Positions 14,646 to 27,682 of a stretch of 64,000 bases of DNA are shown one piece after another. The stretch's first letter is position 1. Each line of letters opens with the position of its first letter. A model generated the notes under the pieces. That model was not told the origin of the DNA, did not search any database, and worked only from the letters and a program-made list of their open reading frames with translations. Origin of the DNA: Schwartzia sp. (in: firmicutes) (lineage in GTDB: Bacteria > Bacillota > Negativicutes > Selenomonadales > Selenomonadaceae); the NCBI GenBank assembly GCA_017383125.1, contig JAFNYY010000096.1:9026-73025 (forward strand), written 5' to 3'. The translations under genes were made by a program, and so were the position numbers.

Positions 14646-15055
14646 TGGCAGACAATGTAGATGTATCCGTCCCCCACGGAGTAGAGCAGAATATAAAGAT
14701 GGAGCTTCTCGCCATGATTCACAGCGGAGAGAGTCCCTACCTTATCATTGACCATGTGGCCCGCTATCTGGAGGAAGCATCGGCAGAGCCGGGCTATGCC
14801 AACCACATACGGGAAAATATGCGGGCAGTCTACGGCTGCGCCCTCCTTCAGAAGAAGCTTCTTACCGATGAGCTGTCAGATGTAGAGGCACGGCTGAAAA
14901 AAATCGAAAAAGCTCAGACCGAAGGAGATTTCACCGACGAGGAAAAGACCCGTATCGGTTTCGCCATCGGTCTCCATCAGAAAAATATCCAGCGCCTGAA
15001 GGGACTTATCGAGCTGAGCGAACAGGATGGAACCGACCCCTACATTGAGAAATAA
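14645..15055 (+). CDS. Hypothetical 136 aa protein, translationally coupled to the amidase
   Basis: The ATG overlaps the upstream TGA (TGATG at 14643-14647). The protein is helical and acidic. No family was recognised. Confidence 0.5.
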   Translation: MADNVDVSVPHGVEQNIKMELLAMIHSGESPYLIIDHVARYLEEASAEPGYANHIRENMRAVYGCALLQKKLLTDELSDVEARLKKIEKAQTEGDFTDEEKTRIGFAIGLHQKNIQRLKGLIELSEQDGTDPYIEK

Positions 15056-15070
15056 AAATCAGATAAAGAA

Positions 15071-15123
15071 ACAGCCGCAGCGACAGGCATAATAACTGCT
15101 TGTCACTGTGGCTGTTTGTTTGT
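15071..15123. terminator. Bidirectional terminator between convergent genes
   Basis: An 18 bp imperfect stem, ACAGCCGCAGCGACAGGC (15071-15088) with GCTTGTCACTGTGGCTGT (15098-15115), is followed by TTGTTTGT. Confidence 0.6.
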
Positions 15124-15143
15124 CGCTGCTGCTGAGATATACC

Positions 15144-16925
15144 TCAGTGTTTTGTGTCGCTTATCGGCAGCGGAACCTTTTGACTCTGATTCAGTCTGTC
15201 TTTGGCGGCTGCCCGCTGGTCATATCCCGGCACCAGATAGGTGCTGAGAAGGGCCGGTCGGAATTTCAGCGGATCACCGTCTGCCCGCTTCTCATTTTCC
15301 GTCAGCAGGAGGTCCAGGGCTCTGGCCGTATATTTTGCCGAGGCAGTCATGTGCATGACGATTACGGAGCCGGAGCGAACCCGGTTTTTCCCATCGTAAA
15401 TTCCCGACTGAATTGCCCCCACCATTGCGCTGAGAATCGGCGACTTGTAATCGGTGGTGCTGGCAAAGCCGGAGACAATATAGGTAAAACCTGCATCGAA
15501 AATCGACTGTACGCCGTTCTTATTCAGTGCCAGCGTCGGCGGGCGCATAAGCCTGGTCAGCGGATGACGGCCATCCACTACCACATCACCTACCGTCATC
15601 GCCAGCTTCTCGTATGACTCCGCCACATCCTTGGCGTAGGTTTCCTTGTCCTGCATTGCCTCGGTGCGGCGAGTTTTTTCGTTGTACCGGGCCATCGCCT
15701 TGTGACCGTCGGTATGACTGGCTATATCGTGACCGTCCTGTGCAATAGCCCGCAGGAGGTTTGGATTGTTCGGCATATTCCAGGTGATTATGAAGAATGT
15801 AGCCGGCACATGATGCTTTCGCAGCACATACAGCAGCTTGTTTATGGAGTCATCGTTGCCCCAGTCATCGAAGGTAAGGAAAACCGTCCCCTCCGGCACA
15901 TTCTTAATGACGCCGGTCTTGTCCGCCTTTGCAATCTCCGCGGAGGAAAAGCCCAGCATACGGTCACCGCCGTCAACCGAGGGAGAGCCGATGTATCGCT
16001 TATAGAACTCCGTCTTCAGGTTTTCCCGGCTCACCGGCATGGCAATCGTCTCCGGCTTCAGCTCATAGGGCAGCTTATCCGGTGCCACAGGATAGTCGTA
16101 GAGTTTTCCCGAATTGTTCAGTACTTCCTGCAGTGATGCCGCCCGATAGGCCGAGTCGTTCTGCGGATTTCTCTCCGGCGTATCATCAAGGGACCGGTAA
16201 GCGATATTGTCAATCTTCTGATGCTTTACTGCCAGCATCATGTCCCCGGCCAGCGTCTCCTTTTCGTAAAAATCCGTGCGGATATAGACAATCTGCCCTC
16301 TGCCCAGAGAACGCACACCCTTGCCGAAAAGGGTTTCCATTACTTCCTCGGCGCTTTTTGCATTCTTGTCCTTTGTCCGCACCACATTTACGCTTTGGCC
16401 CATCAGCCGGCAGCCCATAGCGGACACCGCTTCAAACATGAAATCCTCGTTTGAGCCGGTCATTTCCCGAACAAGATTCGTATCTGTTCCATAGTCTTCG
16501 CTCAAAATGCTGCGGACGCGCTCTATCTGACCGCAGATGGAGTCAAAATCATCCGGCTTGTCGGCATCCTGACTTACTCTGATACCGATGGCCAGCTCGT
16601 GACCCCGGGATACAATCATGTCGATATTATCCCGGTTTCGCTCCAGCTCGCGTTCCGTGACAAAGAAGGTGCCGCGCATAGACTCCTCGTCCATTTTGTC
16701 CAGCACATATTCCAGAGCCCCGCGCTTGGACAAACCGCCGAAGGTAAAGACCACCGCCTGCTCCGTCGTATAGACGAAGCGCTGACGCTCTGCCTTGCGG
16801 CCTGCATTAGCCTGCCGTTCGGTGCTGTAGGCAGACTGTGCCTGAGCAAACGAGGCAGGCTGCATCGCCCATGACGAAAAGGTCAGGGTAAAGGCTGCCA
16901 ATCCTGCAGCAATCAATCTCTTCAT
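15144..16925 (-). CDS. Secreted tandem NodB-domain protein: degenerate first domain, intact second polysaccharide deacetylase domain
   Basis: The ORF is 15144..16955. The likely start is MKRLIAAG at 16925, with GGAGA 8 nt upstream. Domain 1 reads VVFTFGGLS...GHELAIG, so the DD and HxxxH motifs are lost. Domain 2 reads VFLTFDDWGND...GHDIASHTDGH, so both motifs are intact. Confidence 0.82.
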   Translation of the reverse strand: MKRLIAAGLAAFTLTFSSWAMQPASFAQAQSAYSTERQANAGRKAERQRFVYTTEQAVVFTFGGLSKRGALEYVLDKMDEESMRGTFFVTERELERNRDNIDMIVSRGHELAIGIRVSQDADKPDDFDSICGQIERVRSILSEDYGTDTNLVREMTGSNEDFMFEAVSAMGCRLMGQSVNVVRTKDKNAKSAEEVMETLFGKGVRSLGRGQIVYIRTDFYEKETLAGDMMLAVKHQKIDNIAYRSLDDTPERNPQNDSAYRAASLQEVLNNSGKLYDYPVAPDKLPYELKPETIAMPVSRENLKTEFYKRYIGSPSVDGGDRMLGFSSAEIAKADKTGVIKNVPEGTVFLTFDDWGNDDSINKLLYVLRKHHVPATFFIITWNMPNNPNLLRAIAQDGHDIASHTDGHKAMARYNEKTRRTEAMQDKETYAKDVAESYEKLAMTVGDVVVDGRHPLTRLMRPPTLALNKNGVQSIFDAGFTYIVSGFASTTDYKSPILSAMVGAIQSGIYDGKNRVRSGSVIVMHMTASAKYTARALDLLLTENEKRADGDPLKFRPALLSTYLVPGYDQRAAAKDRLNQSQKVPLPISDTKH

Positions 16926-16951
16926 AAAATCGTCTCCTAAGTATCCTCCGC

Positions 16952-17971
16952 TCACTTCACCCCAGCCAGGTTGAGATTGCCCCCAAGCCTCCAGATATTC
17001 ACCGACTTAATTCCGTTGGCTTCAATCTCATTGAGCCACATATTCAGTGTAGTCTCGTCGGCATACCAGACCTCGGTCTTTTGTCCGGCCCGGTTTCTGA
17101 AGGAAAAATGCAGAACTCCGCTGTCATCCTCACGAGCCGGCTTGGCTTCCTGCTCTTTTGCCATGGCCACTGCCTCAGCCTCGGTGATGTACTGCTTCTT
17201 CCCGCTTTCCTCCCACAGACAGCCGCCGGTGGAAACAGCGGCCTCCACATTACCCGGAAGCTGCCGCATCTTCTTCAGGGTCTTTGCAATGAAAGCAAAG
17301 TCCGCCTTCGGCCCCGGCCCGCTGTGCAAACCGTAGAGATTGTACAGCATCACAACATAATCCGGACCCTTGCAGTAATCAAGAGAAACATCTGCCGACG
17401 GCTCAAGCACCACCCGCAGCTTCAAATCATTCTTAACCGCCGCATACTGCAGCTTGGAAATCAGCCAGACGAACTTCTTCGCCAGTGCCTCGTCCTTGAA
17501 TACCCTTTCGTAGTCAAGCTCAATGCCGTTGAAGCCCTTTTCCTTCGTCAGCCGCACCAGCTCCGCCACATGAGCGTTCATTGACGGCTCATCCTTCAGC
17601 ACCCGCTGCAGGACAGCCAAATCCTTCTGCACTGCCGTCCCCTTACCGGGAACGAAATCATTGGTAAAGGAAAGATACTCTCCCGGCCGCTCCAGACTCC
17701 GGCTGCCCTTCAGCGACAGCAGAGAGTCCGGCACCACGATTTTATCGCCATCGGTAAAATAGGTGCGGAAATAAACCATCGACCGGAGGTCGTGCCTGAT
17801 TTTTTCCCCGTCCTCCCGGCCACTTTCCGCATCCCAGTCAGCAACCCAGGCCGTCATCAGCATCGGACCATGCTGACTGCTGTGGGGCTTGGCACTGCAT
17901 CCCGTGAGCATCAGCAGGCTGACTCCAGCCGCCAATGCCCCGGCAACTATCTTACTGTGCAAGCGTTTCAC
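16952..17971 (-). CDS. Lipoprotein with a GH18-like glycoside hydrolase signature
   Basis: 339 aa with the lipobox LMLTGC. GFNGIELDYE fits the GH18 G-F-(D/N)-G-x-x-x-D-(W/F/Y)-E catalytic strand. Confidence 0.6.
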   Translation of the reverse strand: MKRLHSKIVAGALAAGVSLLMLTGCSAKPHSSQHGPMLMTAWVADWDAESGREDGEKIRHDLRSMVYFRTYFTDGDKIVVPDSLLSLKGSRSLERPGEYLSFTNDFVPGKGTAVQKDLAVLQRVLKDEPSMNAHVAELVRLTKEKGFNGIELDYERVFKDEALAKKFVWLISKLQYAAVKNDLKLRVVLEPSADVSLDYCKGPDYVVMLYNLYGLHSGPGPKADFAFIAKTLKKMRQLPGNVEAAVSTGGCLWEESGKKQYITEAEAVAMAKEQEAKPAREDDSGVLHFSFRNRAGQKTEVWYADETTLNMWLNEIEANGIKSVNIWRLGGNLNLAGVK

Positions 17972-17992
17972 GCCGCACCATCCTTCCGTTGT

Positions 17993-19909
17993 TTACAAGT
18001 TAGTTATGAAAGCATCCAGCAGCTTCTCCCAGTATTCTTCTGCCTGCATCCGGTAAAGTTCCATGCCAACCGGCATCGCTGAGAACAGCTTCTGCTCTTC
18101 CTTTGCCTCCGGCGCGGGCACGGAAATCTCCAGTCCCTTGAATACGCCGTCATAGACATCATCGGCCAGATTGCGCTGGCTCCAGGCATCCTTATTCCAG
18201 CTGCCTTCAAAATAAATGCTGCCATTTTGTTTCACTCTGACTGCGGCATCGCGACAGATTTCCGTTCCGTCCATGGTGACGGTGAGCCTATCGCCCTGCA
18301 GGACAATATCCAGTGCTCTGTCCCCCCGGGAGTTTACCGGAATGGGCGGCACATACTCTTTTCCGCCCTCGGCCAAACTCTGTGCCGGCTCTTCGGCTCG
18401 CTTCGCTGCCTTGGCCAGATAGTACTGAGCCAACTCCGTGGACGGTGCATAGCGGGCAAAGGTCTCCAGCTCCTGCACCTCCACCGCTCTCTTATCCTCT
18501 GCCACCGAAACCGGCTCTACACCGTCCAGCTTCGTCAGCTTCGCCCGGAAAAGTTCGCGGTAATTTTCGTTGTCCAGCTCATTGACCACCAGCTGCCCGT
18601 TAGCCAGGCAGACACATACATAGTCCAGCATAGAATCGCTGGCCCGCAAATAAATTCTCTGATTACCGAATACATTGCCCTGCAGCCGGACCTTCAGATG
18701 AACATCTCCGAATTCCTCGCTGCCCTTCAGCCGGACCATGCCCTTGTTCTCCGGCTCGCTGGTGACGGTGAGGGTATCTCCGGTAAACTCCATCGCTCCC
18801 TGCAGCAAATCAAATTCCTCCGCCTTGGGAGATTTGCCGGTCTCAAAGGTAATGTACTGGTTTATATCGTGCTTTATCCGCATCAGCAGATGATTGGTGG
18901 ACCAGTGGGGCTGCGGCTGCATTCGGGTCAGGTCGTAAATGCTGGCGCCGCGCTGATTGAAGCAGTAGCCCTCACGATTGAAGTTCATCGTGAAAATCTC
19001 GCGAATCCACTTCTCATTCACATCGCTGACCTGCCGATTATTGCCGAAGGCACCGGTATTGGCGTGCATGATGGCATAGAGGCGGGGCACATAGTCAAGC
19101 TGCGTGGCATACAAATACCGGAGCCGCTCGTAGTCATAGCTGATGCGCCGCTTCATGTGGTTATAGCTTTCCTTCGGCTGCTCTTCCTTATCCCGTATGT
19201 AATCCATCAGATAATGATTGTACCGGTTCACAAGACAGCCGCGTAGCTTGGCAAATCTCACCGGGTCCAACTCGCCAAGGTAATTGCCGTGACGGTCAAA
19301 GACATTGATAAACTGCAGACGGTAGCCGTTGCTTCCCATCTCCCAGAAGGAAGTCCTCTCCAAATCCTTCAGCTCCTCCGGCGACAGGAACTTCAGATCC
19401 TTGTTGTCGAATTTTTCCGGATAGGTGAGCATTGTTGCCTTGAAGTTGTACTTCTCCAGAATTTTCTGAGCGAAAATCGCGGTATCCCGGCGTCCGTCCT
19501 CAAACATCAGGAAGAGGGAACGGTCCGGCAGACGCTTTCCTTCCTTATAGTATTCCTCGATGTCCGTCTGGGTGATTGTCACATAGCCCTGACGGTGCAA
19601 AGCGGCCAGATGCTGCTCCAGCACATCCTTGCCAATCAAATCCGACTTGTTTCCGATTCTGTCCACGCCGAAGTAGGACAGTGCAACAAAGCCGGTATCT
19701 GACATCCCCGGCTCCGCTTCCTCGTCCGCCTCAGCAGGAACATAAGTCCCGTGATGGAAAAGGCCCATCCAGACGACATAGGAAAATAAAGCCAGAATAA
19801 GCACCTGCAGAAGAGTACGAAATCTCTTCCGACGGTTTTTCCGCCTGGTATATTTATGGTCTCCGATGACAACTGCAGCGTTTTCCTTTTTATCCATTCT
19901 GCCTGTCAC
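17993..19909 (-). CDS. Membrane-anchored NodB-like protein with C-terminal jelly-roll (lectin/LamG-like) repeats
   Basis: 638 aa with an N-terminal TM segment (LLQVLILALFSYVVWMGLF). The deacetylase-like segment is GFVALSYFGVDR...SLFLMFEDGRRDT. The C-terminus has two beta-rich repeats. The start is ambiguous: GTG at 19909 or ATG at 19897, and both overlap the end of the upstream gene. Confidence 0.6.
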   Translation of the reverse strand: MTGRMDKKENAAVVIGDHKYTRRKNRRKRFRTLLQVLILALFSYVVWMGLFHHGTYVPAEADEEAEPGMSDTGFVALSYFGVDRIGNKSDLIGKDVLEQHLAALHRQGYVTITQTDIEEYYKEGKRLPDRSLFLMFEDGRRDTAIFAQKILEKYNFKATMLTYPEKFDNKDLKFLSPEELKDLERTSFWEMGSNGYRLQFINVFDRHGNYLGELDPVRFAKLRGCLVNRYNHYLMDYIRDKEEQPKESYNHMKRRISYDYERLRYLYATQLDYVPRLYAIMHANTGAFGNNRQVSDVNEKWIREIFTMNFNREGYCFNQRGASIYDLTRMQPQPHWSTNHLLMRIKHDINQYITFETGKSPKAEEFDLLQGAMEFTGDTLTVTSEPENKGMVRLKGSEEFGDVHLKVRLQGNVFGNQRIYLRASDSMLDYVCVCLANGQLVVNELDNENYRELFRAKLTKLDGVEPVSVAEDKRAVEVQELETFARYAPSTELAQYYLAKAAKRAEEPAQSLAEGGKEYVPPIPVNSRGDRALDIVLQGDRLTVTMDGTEICRDAAVRVKQNGSIYFEGSWNKDAWSQRNLADDVYDGVFKGLEISVPAPEAKEEQKLFSAMPVGMELYRMQAEEYWEKLLDAFITNL

Positions 19910-22295
19910 CGTCCTTTTCCTTCAATTCCTCCGCCTTCCTTTTCTTCATGGCGCTGTCAATGCTTACCACATTCCCAGCCCCTTTGTTTTTCTCAGTCTT
20001 CCTTCCTGCGGCGGCCCGCTCCGCCATTTCGACGGCTCTCTGGAGAGTCTCCTGCTTCAGCGTCTTTTCCCGCCGTGCTGCCAAAGGCTGGTAAACGACT
20101 ACCGCTACCAGCTTTTTCATTTTCAGTGGCTTTATCCGCTGTACCGGCCGTGCCGTCTGTTCATCGGCAGACTCAGCAGCTTCAGCCTCGGAAGAGTCTT
20201 CAGTCGGCTCGACCTGCTGGACAGGCTCAGTTTCCTCAGTCTGTGCAGCTTCTGTCACCGACATATCTTCCGCCTCTTCGGGAATTTCGGCAGCTTCAGT
20301 TTCAGCCGCCGTTTTTGCTTCCTCGACATCGTTTTCCCCGGCAATGATTTCTTCTTCCGGTTCCTGCTTTGTCACTGCTGCTCCGGCCGCTGCTGCCAGC
20401 GGCTCCTCGGCCTTCACCGGTTTAGCTTCTTCAGCCGCGGCAGTATTCATCTCGGCCTTTGCTTCTGCTTTTATCTCCGCCTTTTGCGTATCTGCCTTTG
20501 CCTCGCCCTTCTTATCGGCCTGCAGCTCAGCAAGGTCAGCCGGCGTCATTCTGGTACCCCAGGTAGACTTCCAGAAGGTGAACCAGGCGATAGGCATCTG
20601 CCACAGCAGAACGGCCTCATAATAAATGCAGAACCAGATTCCGTAGGCCCAGGTAGTACTGCGGCGCAGGAAAAGCTGTGCCATACTCATCAGGGATGCC
20701 ATCATTACCATTCCGATAAGGAAGGTGGTGGGGAAAACCCGATGCAGCAGCGGCACATAAACAAGATTGTACAGTACGATGATAGGCGCCAAAATCGGTA
20801 CGGCAAGACCCATGTAGAAGCACAGGGACATGAAAGGCTCCTTGCGCCACATATACTTTGCCCCGATAAGAGACTCTCTGAGCCAGGAGCGCTTCCAGCG
20901 CATCTGCTGCTTCAGGAACATCTTGTGGGTATTTGGAACGATGGTGGAACAGACAGCAGTATCCTGATAAGTAGTCCTGTTATGCCGCAAAATAAAATTC
21001 GTCATTGACCGGTCATCACCGAAGGTTGCCCTCTGACCGAGGAATTTTTGATTCAGCCAGTCATCGGCATACTTCAGAACGAGATCCTTGCGATAGCAGG
21101 AAAGCGGACCGGACAGACAGGTAACCGCGTCGAAATAGCCCTCGGCCGCTTTCATTACCCGGAAGGCGATATAATAGCGGACTGACTGCATCTTCGTCAG
21201 CGCGTTTGTGTAGGTATTGGCTACATCGGTACGGCCGGAAACGCCGCCCATCTCTTCGTCCTTAAAAGGCTGGACAATATTGCGGACAGCGAAGGGGTCA
21301 AGGAAGCTGTCGGAATCTACAAATACCAGCAGCTCATGCTTTGCCAGCTTCGCACCTACCGCCATGGCCTCACGCTTGCCCTGGTTGACCGGCTGCACAT
21401 AGTAGTTCAGACGCTCGGCCACATTGTACCGGTCGCCCTCTGCCTTCAGCCGTTCGATTATTTCCTTGATTTTCTCTACCGAGCGGTCGGTAGAGCAGTC
21501 ATCCACTACCATGACCTCCAGCTTCTCCGCCGGATAATCCTGATTGATACAGCTCAATATCGTCCGCTGTATCCACTCCTCTTCATTGAAGCAGGGAACT
21601 ATGACGGTAACACCGGGAGTGAAATCCGGATCAATCTCCACCGGCCGATAGAAAATTGCAAAGAGGTAACGGCTCAAAAGGAAAATTGCCGCGATAATAC
21701 TGTAGAAGTAAAGGAATTTGTTGAACTCAAAATAAATTACCGACTCGGCCCTCATCAGCACGATAATGAGGGTAACAAGCAACAGGAAGCAGGAAGCAAC
21801 GCCCAGCATATAGCGGCCCCGCTTGCGGTTCACATAATGGGACAAAATCTCATCAAACTGGAAAGCGTAGCCCATCGTTCCGTCCGGAAACTCGACCACA
21901 CGGACACAGTGAGCCCCCAGCTTCCTGACATTCATCTCATAGCCTTCGACCATAGACCCCGGCGTTATTTCAAAATCCAGCTTTGCGGCACTGCCCTCTT
22001 TGAGCACTGCCGTCTTCTCCTCCGTGCAGACCATTATGCCGCTTCCGGATATATCCTTTGCTACGGAGGAAATCTTGAACTCCCGACCCACCTTATTGCG
22101 AACCCTGACGGTCACCGGAAAGTCAACAATATAGCGCTGCCCTTCCTTTTCGCTGTTGATATAGTCGCGAAAATCCCGAATCTCAACATCGTTGTGGCGG
22201 CGATCACGGTTGCTTCTCTGCTGCTCGCCGTCCGGAACATGGGAAAGGAGACGCCTATCATGTTTTTCTTTTAATACTATGTCCTCAATACTCAA
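19890..22295 (-). CDS. PilZ domain fused to a class I hyaluronan-synthase-like processive GT2, with a long acidic disordered C-terminal tail
   Basis: 801 aa. The N-terminus has DISGSG (DxSxxG), with KEGQR 27 aa upstream and an Arg-rich stretch RSNRDRRHNDVEIRDFRD further upstream. The GT2 core motifs are VVDDCSTD, FVDSDS, SGPLSCYR, FGDDRSMTN, KQQMRWKRSW (QxxRW) and TWGTR. The last roughly 230 aa are E/A/K-rich low complexity. Confidence 0.85.
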   Translation of the reverse strand: MSIEDIVLKEKHDRRLLSHVPDGEQQRSNRDRRHNDVEIRDFRDYINSEKEGQRYIVDFPVTVRVRNKVGREFKISSVAKDISGSGIMVCTEEKTAVLKEGSAAKLDFEITPGSMVEGYEMNVRKLGAHCVRVVEFPDGTMGYAFQFDEILSHYVNRKRGRYMLGVASCFLLLVTLIIVLMRAESVIYFEFNKFLYFYSIIAAIFLLSRYLFAIFYRPVEIDPDFTPGVTVIVPCFNEEEWIQRTILSCINQDYPAEKLEVMVVDDCSTDRSVEKIKEIIERLKAEGDRYNVAERLNYYVQPVNQGKREAMAVGAKLAKHELLVFVDSDSFLDPFAVRNIVQPFKDEEMGGVSGRTDVANTYTNALTKMQSVRYYIAFRVMKAAEGYFDAVTCLSGPLSCYRKDLVLKYADDWLNQKFLGQRATFGDDRSMTNFILRHNRTTYQDTAVCSTIVPNTHKMFLKQQMRWKRSWLRESLIGAKYMWRKEPFMSLCFYMGLAVPILAPIIVLYNLVYVPLLHRVFPTTFLIGMVMMASLMSMAQLFLRRSTTWAYGIWFCIYYEAVLLWQMPIAWFTFWKSTWGTRMTPADLAELQADKKGEAKADTQKAEIKAEAKAEMNTAAAEEAKPVKAEEPLAAAAGAAVTKQEPEEEIIAGENDVEEAKTAAETEAAEIPEEAEDMSVTEAAQTEETEPVQQVEPTEDSSEAEAAESADEQTARPVQRIKPLKMKKLVAVVVYQPLAARREKTLKQETLQRAVEMAERAAAGRKTEKNKGAGNVVSIDSAMKKRKAEELKEKDGDRQNG

Positions 22296-22321: not shown

Positions 22322-23461
22322 TTAATCTTCAGCAGGTTCCTCCGGCTCCCCTTCTTCGGGGACATCCTCCTCCAACGGTTCACCTTCTTCGGAGCTGCCG
22401 TTATCCGTCGGTGCGCCCTCTTCTGAGGCACCGCTTTCTGCCGGTGTTCCCGTCTTGGTGGCAACATTCCCCGCAGGTTTCCCCTGTGCGGGGACACCGT
22501 TTTCCGGCACGGCCTTCGGAGCGCCTTCTTCAACCTCCATCGGAGCGACCGGAATATACTTGATTTTTGAGAAATAATTTACATCCGCGAAGACAACGCC
22601 CTTTTTGTCAAAGGCCGTCAGAATATATTCAAGGCGCTCGGCGAAATTTGGCCCGCTGCTTCCGGCTGCCTTCTGCACCGTCGAATCCTTGATTGTCGGC
22701 TTCTTATCGATTGCTGGTCTCTGTTCGCGAGGGACAGCCGCTTTAGCCGGCGGCTCCACCGTAAGACCTAGCTTCATGGACAGGATGCTGCCGTTAGGTA
22801 CGCTGAGTGCAAAATTATCGGCATCGGCCTGACTGTTAATCGTCGCCATGTCGATATAGACATTTGCTCTCACCGCCGCTTCCAGCCCGCAGGCATTGAC
22901 TGCCTTCAGCACATCCGGCGTATAAACGGTGCGGTTGGCCATGAACAGCTTCGGTGCCGTACCGGTCTGCGCCCGGATAACCTTCTGTGTCCTGCACAGC
23001 TCACCGATTATCTTGGTTATTGGTTGTCTGTCCAGACGGCTGGCACCAACGAAAGTATAATTGCCCAGGGGAAAACCGCCCTCGGTAATCAGCTTGATGG
23101 TCTCATCTTCCTCTGCCGCATTCATGCCTTCGGCAAAGAAAACGGCGTTTGCCTTATGCTTCGTCAGGCAATCCACAATCTGTGCCGTCATCACCCTGTC
23201 AGGCAGACCTTCCACCACCAGCGCTACCTGCGGCAGTTCATTGCGGTTGGCCACAATGACAAGAGCCGGCTCCGGATGCTCAATGATTTTTTCCCTCGCT
23301 GCCGCGATTTCATCATCAGCCTGCCAGAACATATCCAGCTCGTTTATGCCGCCGGGTATGTCCGCCTTCTGAGCGAAATCTTCCCACGGCGCCCACCAGT
23401 AAATCAAACCGCAGACCACGGATATGATTACGGTGTAAAGCATTTTTATCTGGAAATTCAA
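22322..23461 (-). CDS. Membrane-anchored NodB-like protein with degenerate catalytic motifs and an acidic Pro/Glu-rich tail
   Basis: The ORF is 22322..23539. The likely start is TTG at 23461, 6 nt after GGAGAA and just after the dehydrogenase's TAA; ATG at 23443 is the alternative. The fold-like segment is VALVVEGLPDRVMTAQIVDCLTKHKANAVFFAEG, with no TFDD or HxxxH. The tail ends ...EEGEPLEEDVPEEGEPEEPAED. Confidence 0.6.
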   Translation of the reverse strand: MNFQIKMLYTVIISVVCGLIYWWAPWEDFAQKADIPGGINELDMFWQADDEIAAAREKIIEHPEPALVIVANRNELPQVALVVEGLPDRVMTAQIVDCLTKHKANAVFFAEGMNAAEEDETIKLITEGGFPLGNYTFVGASRLDRQPITKIIGELCRTQKVIRAQTGTAPKLFMANRTVYTPDVLKAVNACGLEAAVRANVYIDMATINSQADADNFALSVPNGSILSMKLGLTVEPPAKAAVPREQRPAIDKKPTIKDSTVQKAAGSSGPNFAERLEYILTAFDKKGVVFADVNYFSKIKYIPVAPMEVEEGAPKAVPENGVPAQGKPAGNVATKTGTPAESGASEEGAPTDNGSSEEGEPLEEDVPEEGEPEEPAED

Positions 23462-23471
23462 GATTTTCTCC

Positions 23472-24785
23472 TTACAAACTCCAAACCCGGAAGTCCTGCT
23501 GGGCCAGGCTGCTGCTGTCAAACATACTCTTGACATCAATCAGCAGCTTTCTGCCGTCGGTCTTTTTATAGAGCTGCTTGAGCTGCTCCGCCGAAAGATT
23601 GCGGAACTGCTGATGCGCCACGAGGAAAACAAGACAATCCGCATCCTTCACCTCATCCAGTGAAGTAAGCTCGATTCCGTATTCCTTGGCGAAGATTTCC
23701 CGGTCGGCCACCGGGTCGACCGCCGTCAGCTTCAGTCCCATTTCCGCCAATTCGTTGTAAACATCCACAGCCCGGGAGTTGCGGGTATCGATGCAGTCCT
23801 CCTTGAAGGTCATGCCGCAGAGTACCACATTGGCCCGGCTGACATCTATTCCTTCCACAATCATTTCTCTGACGACGGAACGAGCCACAAATTCGCTCAT
23901 GCCGTCATTAATCCGGCGGCCTGCCGCGATAAGCTGAGAATGGTACCCCAGCTTCTCTGCCTCGTAAATGAAATAGTAAGGATCAACGCCGATGCAGTGA
24001 CCGCCTACCAGACCGGGACGGAAGCCCAGAGCGTTCCACTTCGTATTCATGGCCTCAACGACCTCATGGGTTGAGATACCCATTCTGTTAAAGGCCATGG
24101 CCAGCTCATTCATAAAAGCAATGTTAATGTCCCGCTGAGAATTTTCCGCTACCTTGGCAGCCTCGGCCACCTTGATGCTGCCGGCACGATGAACACCGGC
24201 TTCGATAATCAGACTGTAGACATTTGCCACCAGCTCCAGAGTTGCCTCATCCATGCCGGAAACAATTTTCACGATATTTTTCAGACGATGCACCGGGTCT
24301 GCCGGATTGATACGCTCCGGCGAATAACCGATGAAGAACTCACTGCCCAGCTGCAAGCCGGATTTCTCCGCCAAAATCGGACCGCAGACATCCTCCGTAA
24401 CTCCGGGATAAACGGTGGACTCAAAGACAACCACCGTATCCTTCTTCATATTTGCGCCCACCAGAGCCGAGGCACTTCTGATAGGCTCAAGGTCCGGCGT
24501 CTTATCACCATTTACCGGAGTAGGTACCGCAACGATGATGAAAGCCGCTTCCTGCAGAGCAGCCGCATCAGAGGTAAACTCCACTCCGCTGCAGCGCACC
24601 GCCTCGTCACCGGCTTCCTGTGTCGGGTCAATACCGGCCTTATACGCAGCAATCTTCTCCGCATTCAAGTCGAAGCCTATTACCCGGAAATGCTTTGCAA
24701 AGGCAACTGCCAGCGGCAAGCCCACATAGCCAAGCCCTACTACAACCAAAGCTCTTTTTCTTTCTGTCAGTTCATCGAAAATCAT
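23472..24785 (-). CDS. NAD-dependent UDP-aminosugar 6-dehydrogenase (WbpO/TviB/CapL-like nucleotide-sugar dehydrogenase)
   Basis: 437 aa. VVGLGYVGLPLAVAFAKHFRVIGFDLNAEKIAAYKAGIDPTQE, YSPERINP, AENSQRDINIAFMNELA and GLVGGHCIGVDPYY match my recollection of the WbpO/TviB subgroup rather than HasB/Ugd. Confidence 0.7.
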   Translation of the reverse strand: MIFDELTERKRALVVVGLGYVGLPLAVAFAKHFRVIGFDLNAEKIAAYKAGIDPTQEAGDEAVRCSGVEFTSDAAALQEAAFIIVAVPTPVNGDKTPDLEPIRSASALVGANMKKDTVVVFESTVYPGVTEDVCGPILAEKSGLQLGSEFFIGYSPERINPADPVHRLKNIVKIVSGMDEATLELVANVYSLIIEAGVHRAGSIKVAEAAKVAENSQRDINIAFMNELAMAFNRMGISTHEVVEAMNTKWNALGFRPGLVGGHCIGVDPYYFIYEAEKLGYHSQLIAAGRRINDGMSEFVARSVVREMIVEGIDVSRANVVLCGMTFKEDCIDTRNSRAVDVYNELAEMGLKLTAVDPVADREIFAKEYGIELTSLDEVKDADCLVFLVAHQQFRNLSAEQLKQLYKKTDGRKLLIDVKSMFDSSSLAQQDFRVWSL

Positions 24786-24813: not shown

Positions 24814-26556
24814 TCAGCTATGATAAAAGAAGGACAAGGCCAGCCAAACCGTATTGTTAATCCGGTTGGTGGTCATTTCCTTTAAGTGATCAAATTCCAG
24901 CGTAGCCATCAGATTTTTCACCAGAGTACGGGTCACGCCGATGCCCCAGCCCCTGAAGCCGTTCATCCTGTCCGCCACACCGTTCATGGTGTGCTGTACA
25001 TAGGTGGCCCGGGGCTGATGATAATACTTCAGATAGTATGAAGTGCGTCCCGGCTCCTCGCTCCAGGGAGTACCGTGCTGCAGTGTAAGCACATATCCGT
25101 TGCCGTTCCCCACATAACTGTCGCGGCCCATAAGGAACATTGCCCCGAAATCGAACTGACGGCCCAATGGCACATGACCGTTCAGCATATAGATATTCCG
25201 CCGTCCGCCGCCGTTCATGCCAAATCCGAAATATCCGGCCTCCAGACTGTATTTACCCGGCACTGCATATCCGGCGGTAAAGGTGGCTACATTCCTTGCC
25301 GAGTTTACTGAGCCGTACCGGGCCGCGAAATTTATTTTATCGCCGCCCTCCAGCATCATGCCCTTGAAGCTGCTGTCGTAGACATTGCCCTCTGCCATGG
25401 TGGCGCCCATCTTGCCCGCAGTAGCCCGGACCGCTCCCACATTACCGGTCAGATAATAGCGCTCCAGTCTGAGCCAGTGGTCATCTCCGGAGCCGGACAG
25501 ATTCTTTTCCGACTCCACCATAGCAACGGCATGCCAGTTTCCGTCAATATTATAGTCACCGTAAAGACGGTTTCTCAGACGCAGTCTCTTATCATTAGAG
25601 ACATCACCGTTGTCATTTTTGTAGTCAAGTCTCAGCTCACCGTTGAGATTGAAGCGCCGCGCCTCTTTTACAGAGCTTTCCCAAGCCTCCTGATTGCGGG
25701 CCTGAGCCTGAGCCGCTTCATCCTCAAAATAGCCAAGCTCCTGCAGCTCGGTTCCCAGCTTTGCCCGAAGCCTGCCGGCTGCCCGAATATACTTATCGTC
25801 GATGTCGGGATATTTTCCCTCATCCATTTCCAAAAGAAACGCGGCCGTTTTCTCCGCCGCTTCTTCACGGCTGAGTGTTCTCGGAGATTTTCCCTCCAAA
25901 TCAATGAAGCCGCCCTCGGCCAAAGTCTCCAGCTCCAGACTGTCGGTGAAATCCACCTTGTCCTGCTCCGCCATGTCCCGGAGGTAAGCAGCGGCGTATT
26001 CCTCAGCCGCCTCCTTCAGCTTCTCACGGCAGCGGTTCACTTTTTCGTTCAGAGCAACGACCTCGTCCATCTCATCGCCGGGCTTATTGGTGCTGCTGTA
26101 GAGCCGGTATACTTTCCGCTGGAGCTTGCGGGAAAGTTTCTCCGTCCGCTTCTCCAGTTCCTCCAGTTCCGCAGACGCGGGAGTCTTCTTTGCCGGGTTT
26201 GTATTTGCCGTGCCTCTGCCGTTCTGCAAAAGCTCATCCTGATGCTTTTCCCATTCCTTCAGAATCATTTCCCGCTGCCGGACATTCTGTTCCAGTTTTT
26301 CCTTTCGGCTCAGCCGATCTTCCGGCACATTCTTTTCCTTTGCCAGCTTTTTGGTAACATTTTCCAGTTTCTTCTTCAGTACCTTGTAGCGGCCCTCATC
26401 TTCTGCCCGCAGAGCCGTCGTCTCGGCATATTCCTGTGCCGCCCTCTGGGCTCTGCTGTCCTTTGGGGGCTGTATCGTTTTATCTCTCGTTGCAGCGGCG
26501 GTACACGCCAGAAGCGTGAATACACCCAAAAGTGCCGCAATCTTTCGCTTGTTCAT
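24814..26556 (-). CDS. Outer-membrane protein: signal/lipobox-like N-terminus, about 280 aa coiled-coil region, C-terminal beta-barrel-like domain. Candidate polysaccharide export porin.
   Basis: 580 aa. The N-terminus ends in TLLAC. The first half is highly charged with heptad-like repeats. The last roughly 270 aa show an alternating hydrophobic/polar strand pattern (RFNLNGELRLDYKND, RLRLRNRLYGDYNIDGNWHAVAMVE, WLRLERYYLTGNV, ...NTVWLALSFFYHS). It is the first gene of the EPS operon. Confidence 0.55.
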   Translation of the reverse strand: MNKRKIAALLGVFTLLACTAAATRDKTIQPPKDSRAQRAAQEYAETTALRAEDEGRYKVLKKKLENVTKKLAKEKNVPEDRLSRKEKLEQNVRQREMILKEWEKHQDELLQNGRGTANTNPAKKTPASAELEELEKRTEKLSRKLQRKVYRLYSSTNKPGDEMDEVVALNEKVNRCREKLKEAAEEYAAAYLRDMAEQDKVDFTDSLELETLAEGGFIDLEGKSPRTLSREEAAEKTAAFLLEMDEGKYPDIDDKYIRAAGRLRAKLGTELQELGYFEDEAAQAQARNQEAWESSVKEARRFNLNGELRLDYKNDNGDVSNDKRLRLRNRLYGDYNIDGNWHAVAMVESEKNLSGSGDDHWLRLERYYLTGNVGAVRATAGKMGATMAEGNVYDSSFKGMMLEGGDKINFAARYGSVNSARNVATFTAGYAVPGKYSLEAGYFGFGMNGGGRRNIYMLNGHVPLGRQFDFGAMFLMGRDSYVGNGNGYVLTLQHGTPWSEEPGRTSYYLKYYHQPRATYVQHTMNGVADRMNGFRGWGIGVTRTLVKNLMATLEFDHLKEMTTNRINNTVWLALSFFYHS

Positions 26557-26783
26557 AATACTTCTCCAAGAAACCTAATACTATTGTCCTATAATTTCCG
26601 ATTACATCATCCGGGCCTATGCACTACTATCAGCGCAGTCACTGCTCCATTCAAAACCGGTACGGTTCTTCTTACGGCTCCGTATGATAATCAGTCGGTT
26701 TCATCTTGACTTGTACAGCATTATCGCGCTGTACAACTTATCTATATTAAACCACTAACGCTAAATAATTTCAACTGTTTTAC

Positions 26784-26811
26784 ATTATTAGAAAACAATG
26801 TTTTCTGTCAA
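26784..26811 (-). promoter_or_regulatory. Candidate sigma70 promoter of the EPS operon, with a palindromic operator filling the spacer
   Basis: The minus strand reads TTGACA (26811-26806), a 16 nt spacer, then AATAAT (26789-26784). The spacer contains the perfect palindrome GAAAACA-A-TGTTTTC (26791-26805). The predicted leader to the ATG at 26556 is about 220 nt. Confidence 0.45.
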
Positions 26812-26968: not shown

Positions 26969-27682
26969 TTATAGTGTTATCCCTGTTGCCCGGACAATCG
27001 CCGCGGCAATGGCAAAATACGGCCCGTAGGCGAAGAACTCATCCTTCTTTTTCTTCGTGACTATCAGCAGCACCGCCGCCGCCAGGCCCCCAAGAATGAA
27101 GCCGAAGGCCACTGCCGATGAAGTATACCCTGCTCCCAGCCACATTCCCAATGCCGTTATCAGTTTAATGTCCCCGCCGAAAATACTGCCTTTAAGCACG
27201 ACCGCCAGCAAAAGCATTATGCCTCCGGCCGCCAGACCAGTAAGCAGCGACTCCAAGGGTTCCGGCGGCGGCACCGGCATACCGGGAGGCAGTGCCAGAC
27301 AATCGGGCATATACGATTTCAGAAGCGACTGAACGATACCAGCCGCCGCCAAAAACATAACCGCCGAATCAAAAATAATATACTGTTCCCAATCTGTAAT
27401 CGAAATAAACAGAAGGGTCAGATAAAAGCAAAGATTAAAAATTCCTGCCGCCGGATATGAAGTATCAACCCCAAAATAAGCAGCTGCACATCCGACAAAA
27501 AGCAGCGGCAGGCGCAAAACGGCCCTGCTCCTCTTTTCCTCCGGAAAGCTCAATTCCGTTTTTTCGCGGCTGTACAATAGGTCTATCAACCTAGAAAGCC
27601 CGACAGTTGTTATTCCCGCCAGAGCTGCCGTCAATATTATACGCAGCACAAACATCACCCAAAAATAAATATTTAATATCAC
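26969..27682 (-). CDS. tadV: A24-family prepilin peptidase (TadV/CpaA-like)
   Basis: 237 aa polytopic membrane protein. It has the GGDIKLITALGMWLG motif and an upstream ITD aspartate motif. It is divergent from the tad operon. Confidence 0.85.
   Translation of the reverse strand: MILNIYFWVMFVLRIILTAALAGITTVGLSRLIDLLYSREKTELSFPEEKRSRAVLRLPLLFVGCAAAYFGVDTSYPAAGIFNLCFYLTLLFISITDWEQYIIFDSAVMFLAAAGIVQSLLKSYMPDCLALPPGMPVPPPEPLESLLTGLAAGGIMLLLAVVLKGSIFGGDIKLITALGMWLGAGYTSSAVAFGFILGGLAAAVLLIVTKKKKDEFFAYGPYFAIAAAIVRATGITL

Follow-up and report, generated by a model that had tools for sequence, protein, structure and literature searches.

The barrel protein and its operon

We analyzed the minus-strand gene at positions 24814 to 26556 of a 64,000-nucleotide (nt) stretch of Schwartzia sp. 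(GenBank assembly GCA_017383125.1, contig JAFNYY010000096.1, positions 9,026 to 73,025 of the forward strand); this whole stretch is referred to below as the window. The gene encodes a protein with a predicted C-terminal outer-membrane beta-barrel, and the host belongs to the Selenomonadaceae, a family of diderm Firmicutes. The original prediction, made by reading the sequence, had placed the gene at the head of an exopolysaccharide operon and described its product as a candidate for a new type of polysaccharide export porin. The operon position was confirmed. Seven genes run in the same direction, with the barrel gene in first place and a dehydrogenase gene starting 28 nt 3' of it, and the barrel protein is the sole predicted outer-membrane protein of the operon according to Pfam and NCBIfam. 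The seven genes are as follows.

24814-26556, minus strand: barrel gene, open reading frame (ORF) of 580 amino acids (aa)
23472-24785, minus strand: TviB-like nucleotide-sugar dehydrogenase (Pfam UDPG_MGDP_dh N-terminal, central, and C-terminal domains)
22322-23539, minus strand: CE4 polysaccharide deacetylase (Pfam Polysacc_deac_1, E = 1.7e-12; syntenic across loci)
19890-22295, minus strand: processive GT2 synthase with an N-terminal PilZ domain (Pfam PilZ, Glycos_transf_2, and Chitin_synth_2)
17993-19909, minus strand: membrane-anchored PgaB-like protein, 638 aa (structural and profile matches)
16952-17971, minus strand: GH18-like protein (Pfam Glyco_hydro_18, E = 1.7e-5, below cutoff; syntenic across loci)
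15144-16955, minus strand: second CE4 deacetylase, last gene of the operon (Pfam Polysacc_deac_1, E = 1.6e-30, two matching stretches; syntenic)

The barrel protein runs from a signal peptide through a helical extension of 170 aa, a decayed SLH domain, and a stalk of about 40 aa to the barrel, with the following positions.

26491-26556, minus strand: signal peptide, residues 1 to 22 (read from the sequence)
25960-26457, minus strand: charged periplasmic helical region, residues 34 to 199 (AlphaFold2, predicted local distance difference test score [pLDDT] of 80 to 95)
25798-25938, minus strand: degenerate SLH-derived module, residues 207 to 253 (LELETLAEGGFIDLEGKSPRTLSREEAAEKTAAFLLEM...; hhalign)
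25678-25797, minus strand: stalk helices before the barrel, residues 254 to 293 (invariant or near-invariant alignment columns)
24820-25653, minus strand: 16-stranded OmpM-type beta-barrel, residues 302 to 579 (AlphaFold2, Foldseek, and BLASTP)

The C-terminal barrel was recovered by structure prediction. The full AlphaFold2 model, built from a 50-sequence alignment, had a mean pLDDT of 76, with 16 strands between residues 302 and 579 that superposed on the whole OmpM1 barrel. In so far as superposition can show it, this favors the closed barrel whose absence would have counted against the original prediction. Glycine and aromatic residues each make up 13% of the barrel, which carries the motifs MAEGNVYDS (residues 387 to 395) and KYYHQPRATYVQHTMNG (residues 510 to 526), and the protein ends in FFYHS, as had been noted. 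The top Foldseek matches in the PDB were Veillonella parvula OmpM1 structures (8bys, 8bym, and 8byt; E = 7e-15 to 1e-13), with target-normalized template modeling (TM) scores of 0.71 to 0.75 over the whole chain of 308 to 323 residues at 19 to 20% identity. The general 16-stranded porins OmpU, OmpF, and OmpK36 came next, at about E = 1e-10. By BLASTP, the window protein aligned to the canonical SLH-OmpM of locus L076 (Pfam SLH, E = 1e-13) with 30% identity over 319 aa (E = 2e-37) and to a Sporomusa protein with 38% identity over 287 aa (E = 5e-52). Because of these two sequence matches, the barrel and the stalk are assigned to the OmpM family, the known SLH-coiled coil-porin of Negativicutes. 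The barrel is not of a new type, and a new barrel fold is ruled out by the structural match to OmpM1 together with the BLASTP homology to canonical OmpM.

The window protein had no match in Pfam or NCBIfam, and no SLH, TPR, Wza, or AlgE-type domain was found at the Pfam threshold. A PDB sequence search with the single window protein gave nothing below E = 0.7. Membership in the PgaA, BcsC, AlgE, or Wza families was rejected, as there was no Pfam or NCBIfam match and no high-ranking structural match to any of them.

Linkage of the barrel gene and the operon across genomes

A barrel-based scan of one genome per species gave 77 loci, 74 of them labeled Negativicutes and the other 3 being metagenome-assembled genomes (MAGs) with broader or conflicting labels. 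Named carriers include Selenomonas, Megamonas, Mitsuokella, Megasphaera, Acidaminococcus, Phascolarctobacterium, Sporomusa, Pelosinus, Anaerospora, and Propionispora. In a midpoint-rooted neighbor-joining tree of the barrel domains, all the operon-linked barrels formed one clade and the canonical OmpMs another; the operon-linked clade accounts for 72 of the 77 loci, and the remaining 5 are canonical OmpM.

We measured linkage by searching all loci with the six partner proteins by tblastn. Of the 72 clade loci, 69 contained one or more partner genes, and the other 3 end at a contig edge 0 to 13 nt past the barrel gene. The dehydrogenase gene lay directly 3' of the barrel gene in 59 of the 64 loci with at least 1.5 kb of downstream sequence. 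The remaining five all hold at least four partners; three have no dehydrogenase gene, and two have the barrel gene at the opposite end of the operon. When at least 9 kb of downstream sequence was available (50 loci), all six partners were found in 45 loci and at least five in 49, so that the co-occurrence with the PilZ-GT2 gene that the original prediction had proposed to examine is well borne out. Canonical OmpM loci (tandem arrays with Pfam SLH) held no partner gene in five of five cases. The competing outcome named in that prediction, a generic porin found independently of exopolysaccharide genes, thus describes the wider OmpM family but not the operon-linked clade. The seven-gene order is the same in the metagenome contigs of P0031 and P0003, and linkage spans Selenomonadales, Veillonellales, Acidaminococcales, and Sporomusales despite barrel identities of 30 to 45% and some changes in gene order. 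In Sporomusales, the second CE4 gene is placed before the synthase gene. Among the canonical loci, L070, L072, and L076 (Phascolarctobacterium and Acidaminococcaceae) have two or three OmpM genes in tandem and no polysaccharide genes in the vicinity.

The reverse test used four loci (L083 to L086) chosen by the GT2 synthase alone. Three of them contained the barrel gene, and all three also had the dehydrogenase gene. In each of the three the barrel gene is part of the operon; L083 is from Anaerosinus massiliensis (Negativicutes), and L085 and L086 are metagenome contigs in which it comes after the dehydrogenase gene. The operon in L084 has neither the barrel gene nor the dehydrogenase gene. 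The synthase homolog search listed close Negativicutes relatives alone, and Clostridia were reached with the L084 PgaB-like protein as the query; its closest named relatives were from Lachnospiraceae, Butyrivibrio, Thermotalea, and Anaerocolumna, which are monoderm Clostridia. Butyrivibrio sp. M55, Thermotalea metallivorans, and Anaerocolumna xylanovorans carry the same core, made up of a fused CE4 gene and the GT2, PgaB-like, and GH18-like genes, and two of these three operons include the dehydrogenase gene. Identity between the Clostridia and window proteins was 57 to 65% for the synthase (compared to 60 to 74% across Negativicutes), 39 to 45% for the PgaB-like protein, and 32 to 36% for the GH18-like protein. 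A search for the barrel gene in four monoderm loci (the three named Clostridia and a Lachnospiraceae-like MAG that also has the CE4, GT2, PgaB-like, and GH18 core) gave no match even at E = 10. The barrel gene was therefore present in every diderm operon examined and in none of the four monoderm operons, which is the strongest argument that the job of the barrel is to deal with the outer membrane.

Two features of these additional loci were also recorded. The two CE4 genes are fused (875 to 1088 aa) in L084, L087, L088, and L089 (Clostridia) and in L083, L085, and L086. In L085, two GGDEF-domain genes lie directly downstream of the operon (15036 to 18353), one of them also encoding dCache and EAL domains; these genes fit control by cyclic di-GMP (c-di-GMP).

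In the protein collection, the window protein had 49 relatives at 90% clustering, all metagenomic and none with a Pfam domain. An exhaustive search with the barrel domain found 220 representatives at E <= 1e-3 among 1.84 billion, with lengths from about 100 to 1116 aa, the shortest being fragments. Canonical OmpMs (ANPFSDVPAGHWAY...) appeared among the matches from about E = 1e-24 downward. Two members of the barrel family, P0094 and P0103, have an N-terminal domain of about 200 aa without a Pfam match, in which the stretch GAFVIEAEELKAYPQTVQLITHEGHKI... resembles by eye a decayed CE4 motif.

Upstream of the barrel gene in the window is a 412-nt intergenic region. A GGAG lies 8 nt 5' of the ATG, and a consensus scan found the following site, which is a consensus match alone.

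26784-26811, minus strand: promoter-like site TTGACA-16 nt-AATAAT (11 of 12 consensus matches)

The predicted leader from this site to the start codon is about 230 nt. Within the leader region (26557 to 26811) there is a 9-bp hairpin at 26711 to 26736. A riboswitch in the leader was rejected, as no Rfam family, c-di-GMP riboswitches included, matched at E <= 1. Directly upstream of the operon is a prepilin peptidase gene (26969 to 27682, minus strand; Peptidase_A24, E = 8e-10), and the homologous operon of Anaerocolumna (L089) has type IV pilus genes, among them one for a prepilin peptidase, just 3' of it. A prepilin peptidase beside the operon may be a recurring neighborhood.

The periplasmic region of the barrel clade

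The N terminus of the barrel protein is MNKRKIAALLGVFTLLAC. The signal sequence ends in TLLAC, as had been reported (residues 14 to 18), and contains a lipobox-like LLAC at residues 15 to 18 (26503 to 26514); signal peptidase I could instead cleave after AAA (residue 22). In the alignment, the lipobox cysteine is common to the window protein and P0002 and is absent from P0003 and P0004. Lipidation is therefore doubtful, and identification as a lipoprotein was not retained. Use of the lipobox would give a protein that is anchored by lipid at one end and carries the outer-membrane barrel at the other.

The region between the signal peptide and the barrel had been described as a coiled coil of about 280 aa. 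Its charged, helical character was confirmed, with D, E, K, and R making up 40% of residues 30 to 296, as in the quoted stretches KVLKKKLENVTKKLAKEKN (residues 58 to 76) and EELEKRTEKLSRKLQRKVYRL (residues 132 to 152). However, AlphaFold2 predicts four separate helices of 27 to 40 residues each (34 to 73, 79 to 112, 129 to 155, and 163 to 199) with Pro/Gly-rich linkers between them, followed by short helices at 207 to 245 in a small module and by the stalk helices at 254 to 293. A separate AlphaFold2 model of residues 27 to 296 gave the same helices (pLDDT of 80, predicted TM score of 0.59). Heptad phasing was moderate, with a constant register over residues 31 to 107 and per-helix shuffle P values from 0.04 to 0.6. 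Because the helices are interrupted and the heptad statistics are moderate, we regard this region as a segmented charged domain and not as one continuous 280-aa rod. The helical region had no structural relative in the PDB at E <= 1e-3 by Foldseek, the best matches being designed helical bundles. A TolC-like periplasmic domain was rejected, as TolC, VceC, MtrE, and CusC matched the helical-region model only at E > 1 with TM scores of 0.14 to 0.22. The N-terminal helical extension is shared by the closest relatives alone (P0001 to P0004), and the architecture of the window protein is rare, being found in two species among the genome representatives and in a few metagenome proteins.

The reported absence of an SLH domain holds at the Pfam threshold, but hhalign detected a degenerate SLH-derived module at residues 207 to 253. 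This segment aligned to the N-terminal SLH-like domain of sister proteins with 97.1% probability (E = 5.6e-11), and that domain in turn aligned to the canonical OmpM SLH domain with 96.6% probability (E = 7e-10). Direct alignment of the window segment to the canonical SLH domain was weak (E = 0.013). The family profile matched the crystal chain of the OmpM1 SLH domain and stalk (8bz2_A, E = 0.006), the other PDB matches being coiled-coil noise. Ligand residues proposed for OmpM1 are W34, Y36, G58, and TRYE at 63 to 66 (PMC10628300). An N-terminal SLH domain of the OmpM kind, with W34, Y36, and TRYE, is lacking in the window protein, which has the internal remnant alone; the residues matching W34, Y36, and Y65 are not conserved, and the TRYE-like motif keeps only the arginine, as LSREE. 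Most Selenomonad-type members open, after the signal peptide, with the motif P.W.YDA...L...GY........LSR.EL, and among the 35 distinct sister N-terminal SLH-like domains, the Trp equivalent to W34 is present in 34 and the Tyr equivalent to Y36 in all 35.

The stalk holds the family-wide motif RLRA..G.EL.ELGYF.DE. The BLASTP alignment to canonical OmpM begins here, with residue 256 of the window protein aligned to residue 71 of OmpM, in the coiled-coil stalk of the latter.

Across the clade, four types of periplasmic head occur in fusion with this barrel, and the genes have an equivalent place in the operon.

Acidaminococcales, 401 aa: SLH domain of canonical appearance, with W, Y, and TRYE
Selenomonadales and Veillonellales, 540 to 820 aa: SLH-like domain and, in addition, helices of about 200 aa or more
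Pelosinus, Anaerospora, and Propionispora, 470 to 505 aa: 'FAYEM' helical repeats, no Pfam match
Sporomusa (seven genomes), 1084 to 1136 aa: TPR array (TPR_19, E = 7e-27) plus FAYEM repeats

In the Sporomusa ORFs (L042, 7439 to 10849; L044, L045, L047, L053, L061, and L062), the TPR array spans about 600 aa and is combined with three FAYEM repeats and an OmpM-type barrel. TPR was also found in the relative P0081, and the homologs give weak Pfam Porin_4 matches. The original prediction had held that the design would differ from PgaA, BcsC, and PelB. This is not so throughout: the window protein has no TPR, but the Sporomusa relatives do combine TPR with a barrel, as is characteristic of PgaA, BcsC, PelB, and NfrA.

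Proposed function and comparison with known systems

The partner proteins point to the kind of polymer that is made. The dehydrogenase is closest to the UDP-N-acetylglucosamine (UDP-GlcNAc) 6-dehydrogenase TviB (E = 2.5e-128 to the NCBIfam model, below the cutoff of that model). The best solved relatives of the synthase are hyaluronan synthases (E = 3e-34), and the synthase also matches the NodC and PgaC models of NCBIfam. Its PilZ domain scores 25.7 bits against a Pfam cutoff of 22.5 and carries DISGSG, which fits the D.S..G motif. The N-terminal domain of the PgaB-like protein matches the PgaB deacetylase domain (3vus, E = 7e-6; 4f9d, E = 3.5e-5; NCBIfam PgaB, E = 5.6e-7). It is a reasonable inference from these homologies that the polymer is GlcNAc based, possibly uronate containing, and partly de-N-acetylated.

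Some details of these genes are specific to the window. The listed TTG start of the first CE4 gene overlaps the dehydrogenase gene by 68 nt, and the true start is uncertain; the encoded protein ends in an acidic Glu/Pro-rich tail. The window synthase has 801 aa, compared to 600 to 650 aa in most homologs, which cover 73 to 77% of the query, and the extra 190 aa or so (19890 to 20480) form an Ala/Glu/Lys-rich low-complexity tail.

We propose, with a probability of about 0.65, that after duplication of OmpM one copy took on the role of outer-membrane export module in a synthase-dependent exopolysaccharide system specific to Negativicutes. The PilZ-GT2 synthase would polymerize a GlcNAc-type chain, possibly one with GlcNAc-uronate, and thread it across the inner membrane; if it resembles other synthases with PilZ domains, c-di-GMP would activate it. 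The CE4, PgaB-like, and GH18-like proteins would modify the chain in the periplasm, and the chain would leave through, or at, the 16-stranded barrel. The charged helices and the decayed SLH module may serve as a periplasmic stalk or scaffold, the role of TPR in PgaA, BcsC, and PelB. The chances are about even that Negativicutes built their own exporter in this way and then swapped its periplasmic head several times, from a canonical SLH domain to a decayed SLH domain with long charged helices, to FAYEM repeats, and to a TPR array.

Several observations weigh against an export channel. The barrels of PgaA, BcsC, and AlgE were not among the top 50 Foldseek matches, and the window protein has no TPR domain by Pfam. 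The canonical OmpM outgroup of the tree consisted of nine sequences, all of the Acidaminococcaceae type. Operon linkage shows a shared role, which is not necessarily that of a conduit. The main caution is that most, and indeed nearly all, of the conserved barrel positions are shared with canonical OmpM, including the AEGNxYD motif around loop 3 and the Q..T..H.MNG motif in predicted loop 7. In OmpM1, loops 3 and 7 form a constriction or eyelet with a radius of about 3.7 Å (PMC10628300). Because the motifs are shared, the pore of the operon-linked barrels may be as narrow as that of a nutrient porin. Sugar porins are known to pass a linear glycan in single file through pores of such sizes, and the same is assumed here. 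By analogy with OmpM, the barrel is probably trimeric.

The barrel protein could instead be an outer-membrane anchor or scaffold, an OmpM paralog that holds the synthesis machinery or the finished polymer, for example through binding of peptidoglycan or polymer by the SLH-derived module, with the polymer staying under the outer membrane or leaving by another route. Tethering is the established role of OmpM, and SLH domains elsewhere bind secondary cell-wall polysaccharides (PMC10628300). The near-invariant Trp and invariant Tyr of the sister SLH-like domains, the canonical-looking SLH domain of the Acidaminococcales versions, and the pore motifs that match a narrow nutrient porin all agree with such a role. 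However, the aromatic ligand residues are lost in the window protein, and the Sporomusa and Pelosinus versions keep the barrel without an SLH domain recognizable by Pfam or in the motif census. In addition, the operon encodes no other outer-membrane component, TPR plus barrel is the signature of an exporter, and PilZ control suggests a secreted biofilm polymer. We consider an anchor or scaffold, the main rival to export, unlikely.

Other roles for the barrel appear improbable to different degrees. Uptake by a substrate-specific porin, chitoporin-like and co-expressed for the recycling or import of GlcNAc oligomers, would agree with a fold closest to diffusion porins and with the GH18-like and CE4 enzymes of the operon, and 16-stranded trimeric chitoporins can translocate chito-oligosaccharides. 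We nevertheless think it improbable, as the operon is biosynthetic, with a hyaluronan-synthase-related processive synthase and a nucleotide-sugar dehydrogenase, and long periplasmic helical or TPR modules are not needed for uptake. The monoderm operons keep the GH18-like and CE4 genes without a porin, which fits a function in crossing the outer membrane but is silent on direction. It is very improbable that the barrel is no more than another OmpM paralog, serving as general porin and tether and lying beside the operon without a functional link. The number of OmpM copies in Negativicutes reaches about twenty, for a reason that is unknown according to the OmpM literature, and the barrel and stalk are clearly OmpM-like. 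However, linkage that holds across four orders at such low barrel identity, a separate clade of operon-linked barrels, a remodeled periplasmic region, and short intergenic gaps within the operon all argue against chance proximity.

If the export reading is correct, a general porin would have been turned into a component dedicated to secretion and would have gained TPR by convergence, so that the TPR-barrel exporter design would have arisen independently of PgaA, BcsC, and PelB, and some of the unexplained OmpM copies of Negativicutes would gain a concrete function. In the literature that we searched, no paper connects barrels of the OmpM type with the export of a polysaccharide, and none reports on this operon of Negativicutes. 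The passage of biofilm polysaccharides across the outer membrane of a diderm Firmicute is undescribed, and the operon-linked clade offers a testable answer both to this question and to that of the many OmpM copies, with a natural comparison between operons that have the barrel gene in diderms and the four sampled monoderm loci that do not. These bacteria live as anaerobes in the gut, rumen, and mouth, and polymers of this kind could influence the biofilms there.

Among known systems, OmpF/OmpC/OmpU and chitoporin have the same 16-stranded porin fold as the window barrel (Foldseek, about E = 1e-10). However, general and sugar-specific porins have no periplasmic domain, serve uptake and not export, and are not linked to a synthase. 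TolC-like factors combine a 12-stranded trimeric barrel with an alpha-helical periplasmic barrel, whereas the window barrel has 16 strands per chain. AlgE/AlgK and Wza likewise pass polysaccharides across the outer membrane, but no similarity to them was found by Pfam or Foldseek; the AlgE barrel has 18 strands and a TPR lipoprotein as its separate partner, and Wza is an octameric channel that is alpha-helical in the outer membrane.

OmpM and Mep45 (V. parvula OmpM1, 8BYM, 8BYS, 8BYT, and 8BZ2; Selenomonas ruminantium Mep45) share with the window protein a C-terminal 16-stranded barrel, a stalk, and an SLH-derived module, as well as the AEGNxYD and Q..T..H.MNG motifs, and come from the same bacterial class. 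Unlike in OmpM, the SLH module of the window protein is degenerate, having no Pfam match and having lost the Trp and Tyr, and it is internal, behind the 170-aa N-terminal helical extension. The window gene heads an exopolysaccharide operon and is not part of an OmpM array or outer-membrane cluster, and it belongs to a separate clade, some members of which have TPR or other helical repeats in place of SLH.

PgaA, BcsC, PelB, and NfrA of Proteobacteria differ in that their barrels show no similarity to the window barrel by Pfam or among the top 50 Foldseek matches. The window barrel derives from a trimeric general porin family, and the protein has charged helices and no TPR. However, the genes of these exporters, like that of the window protein, stand with those for a processive GT2 synthase and a PgaB-like deacetylase, with control by c-di-GMP (predicted for the window operon), and the exporters have a 16-stranded barrel after a long helical periplasmic domain, which in the Sporomusa orthologs of the window protein includes a true TPR array. 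The operon-linked clade brings together a barrel family and an export logic that are each known, in a combination and a clade that are new.

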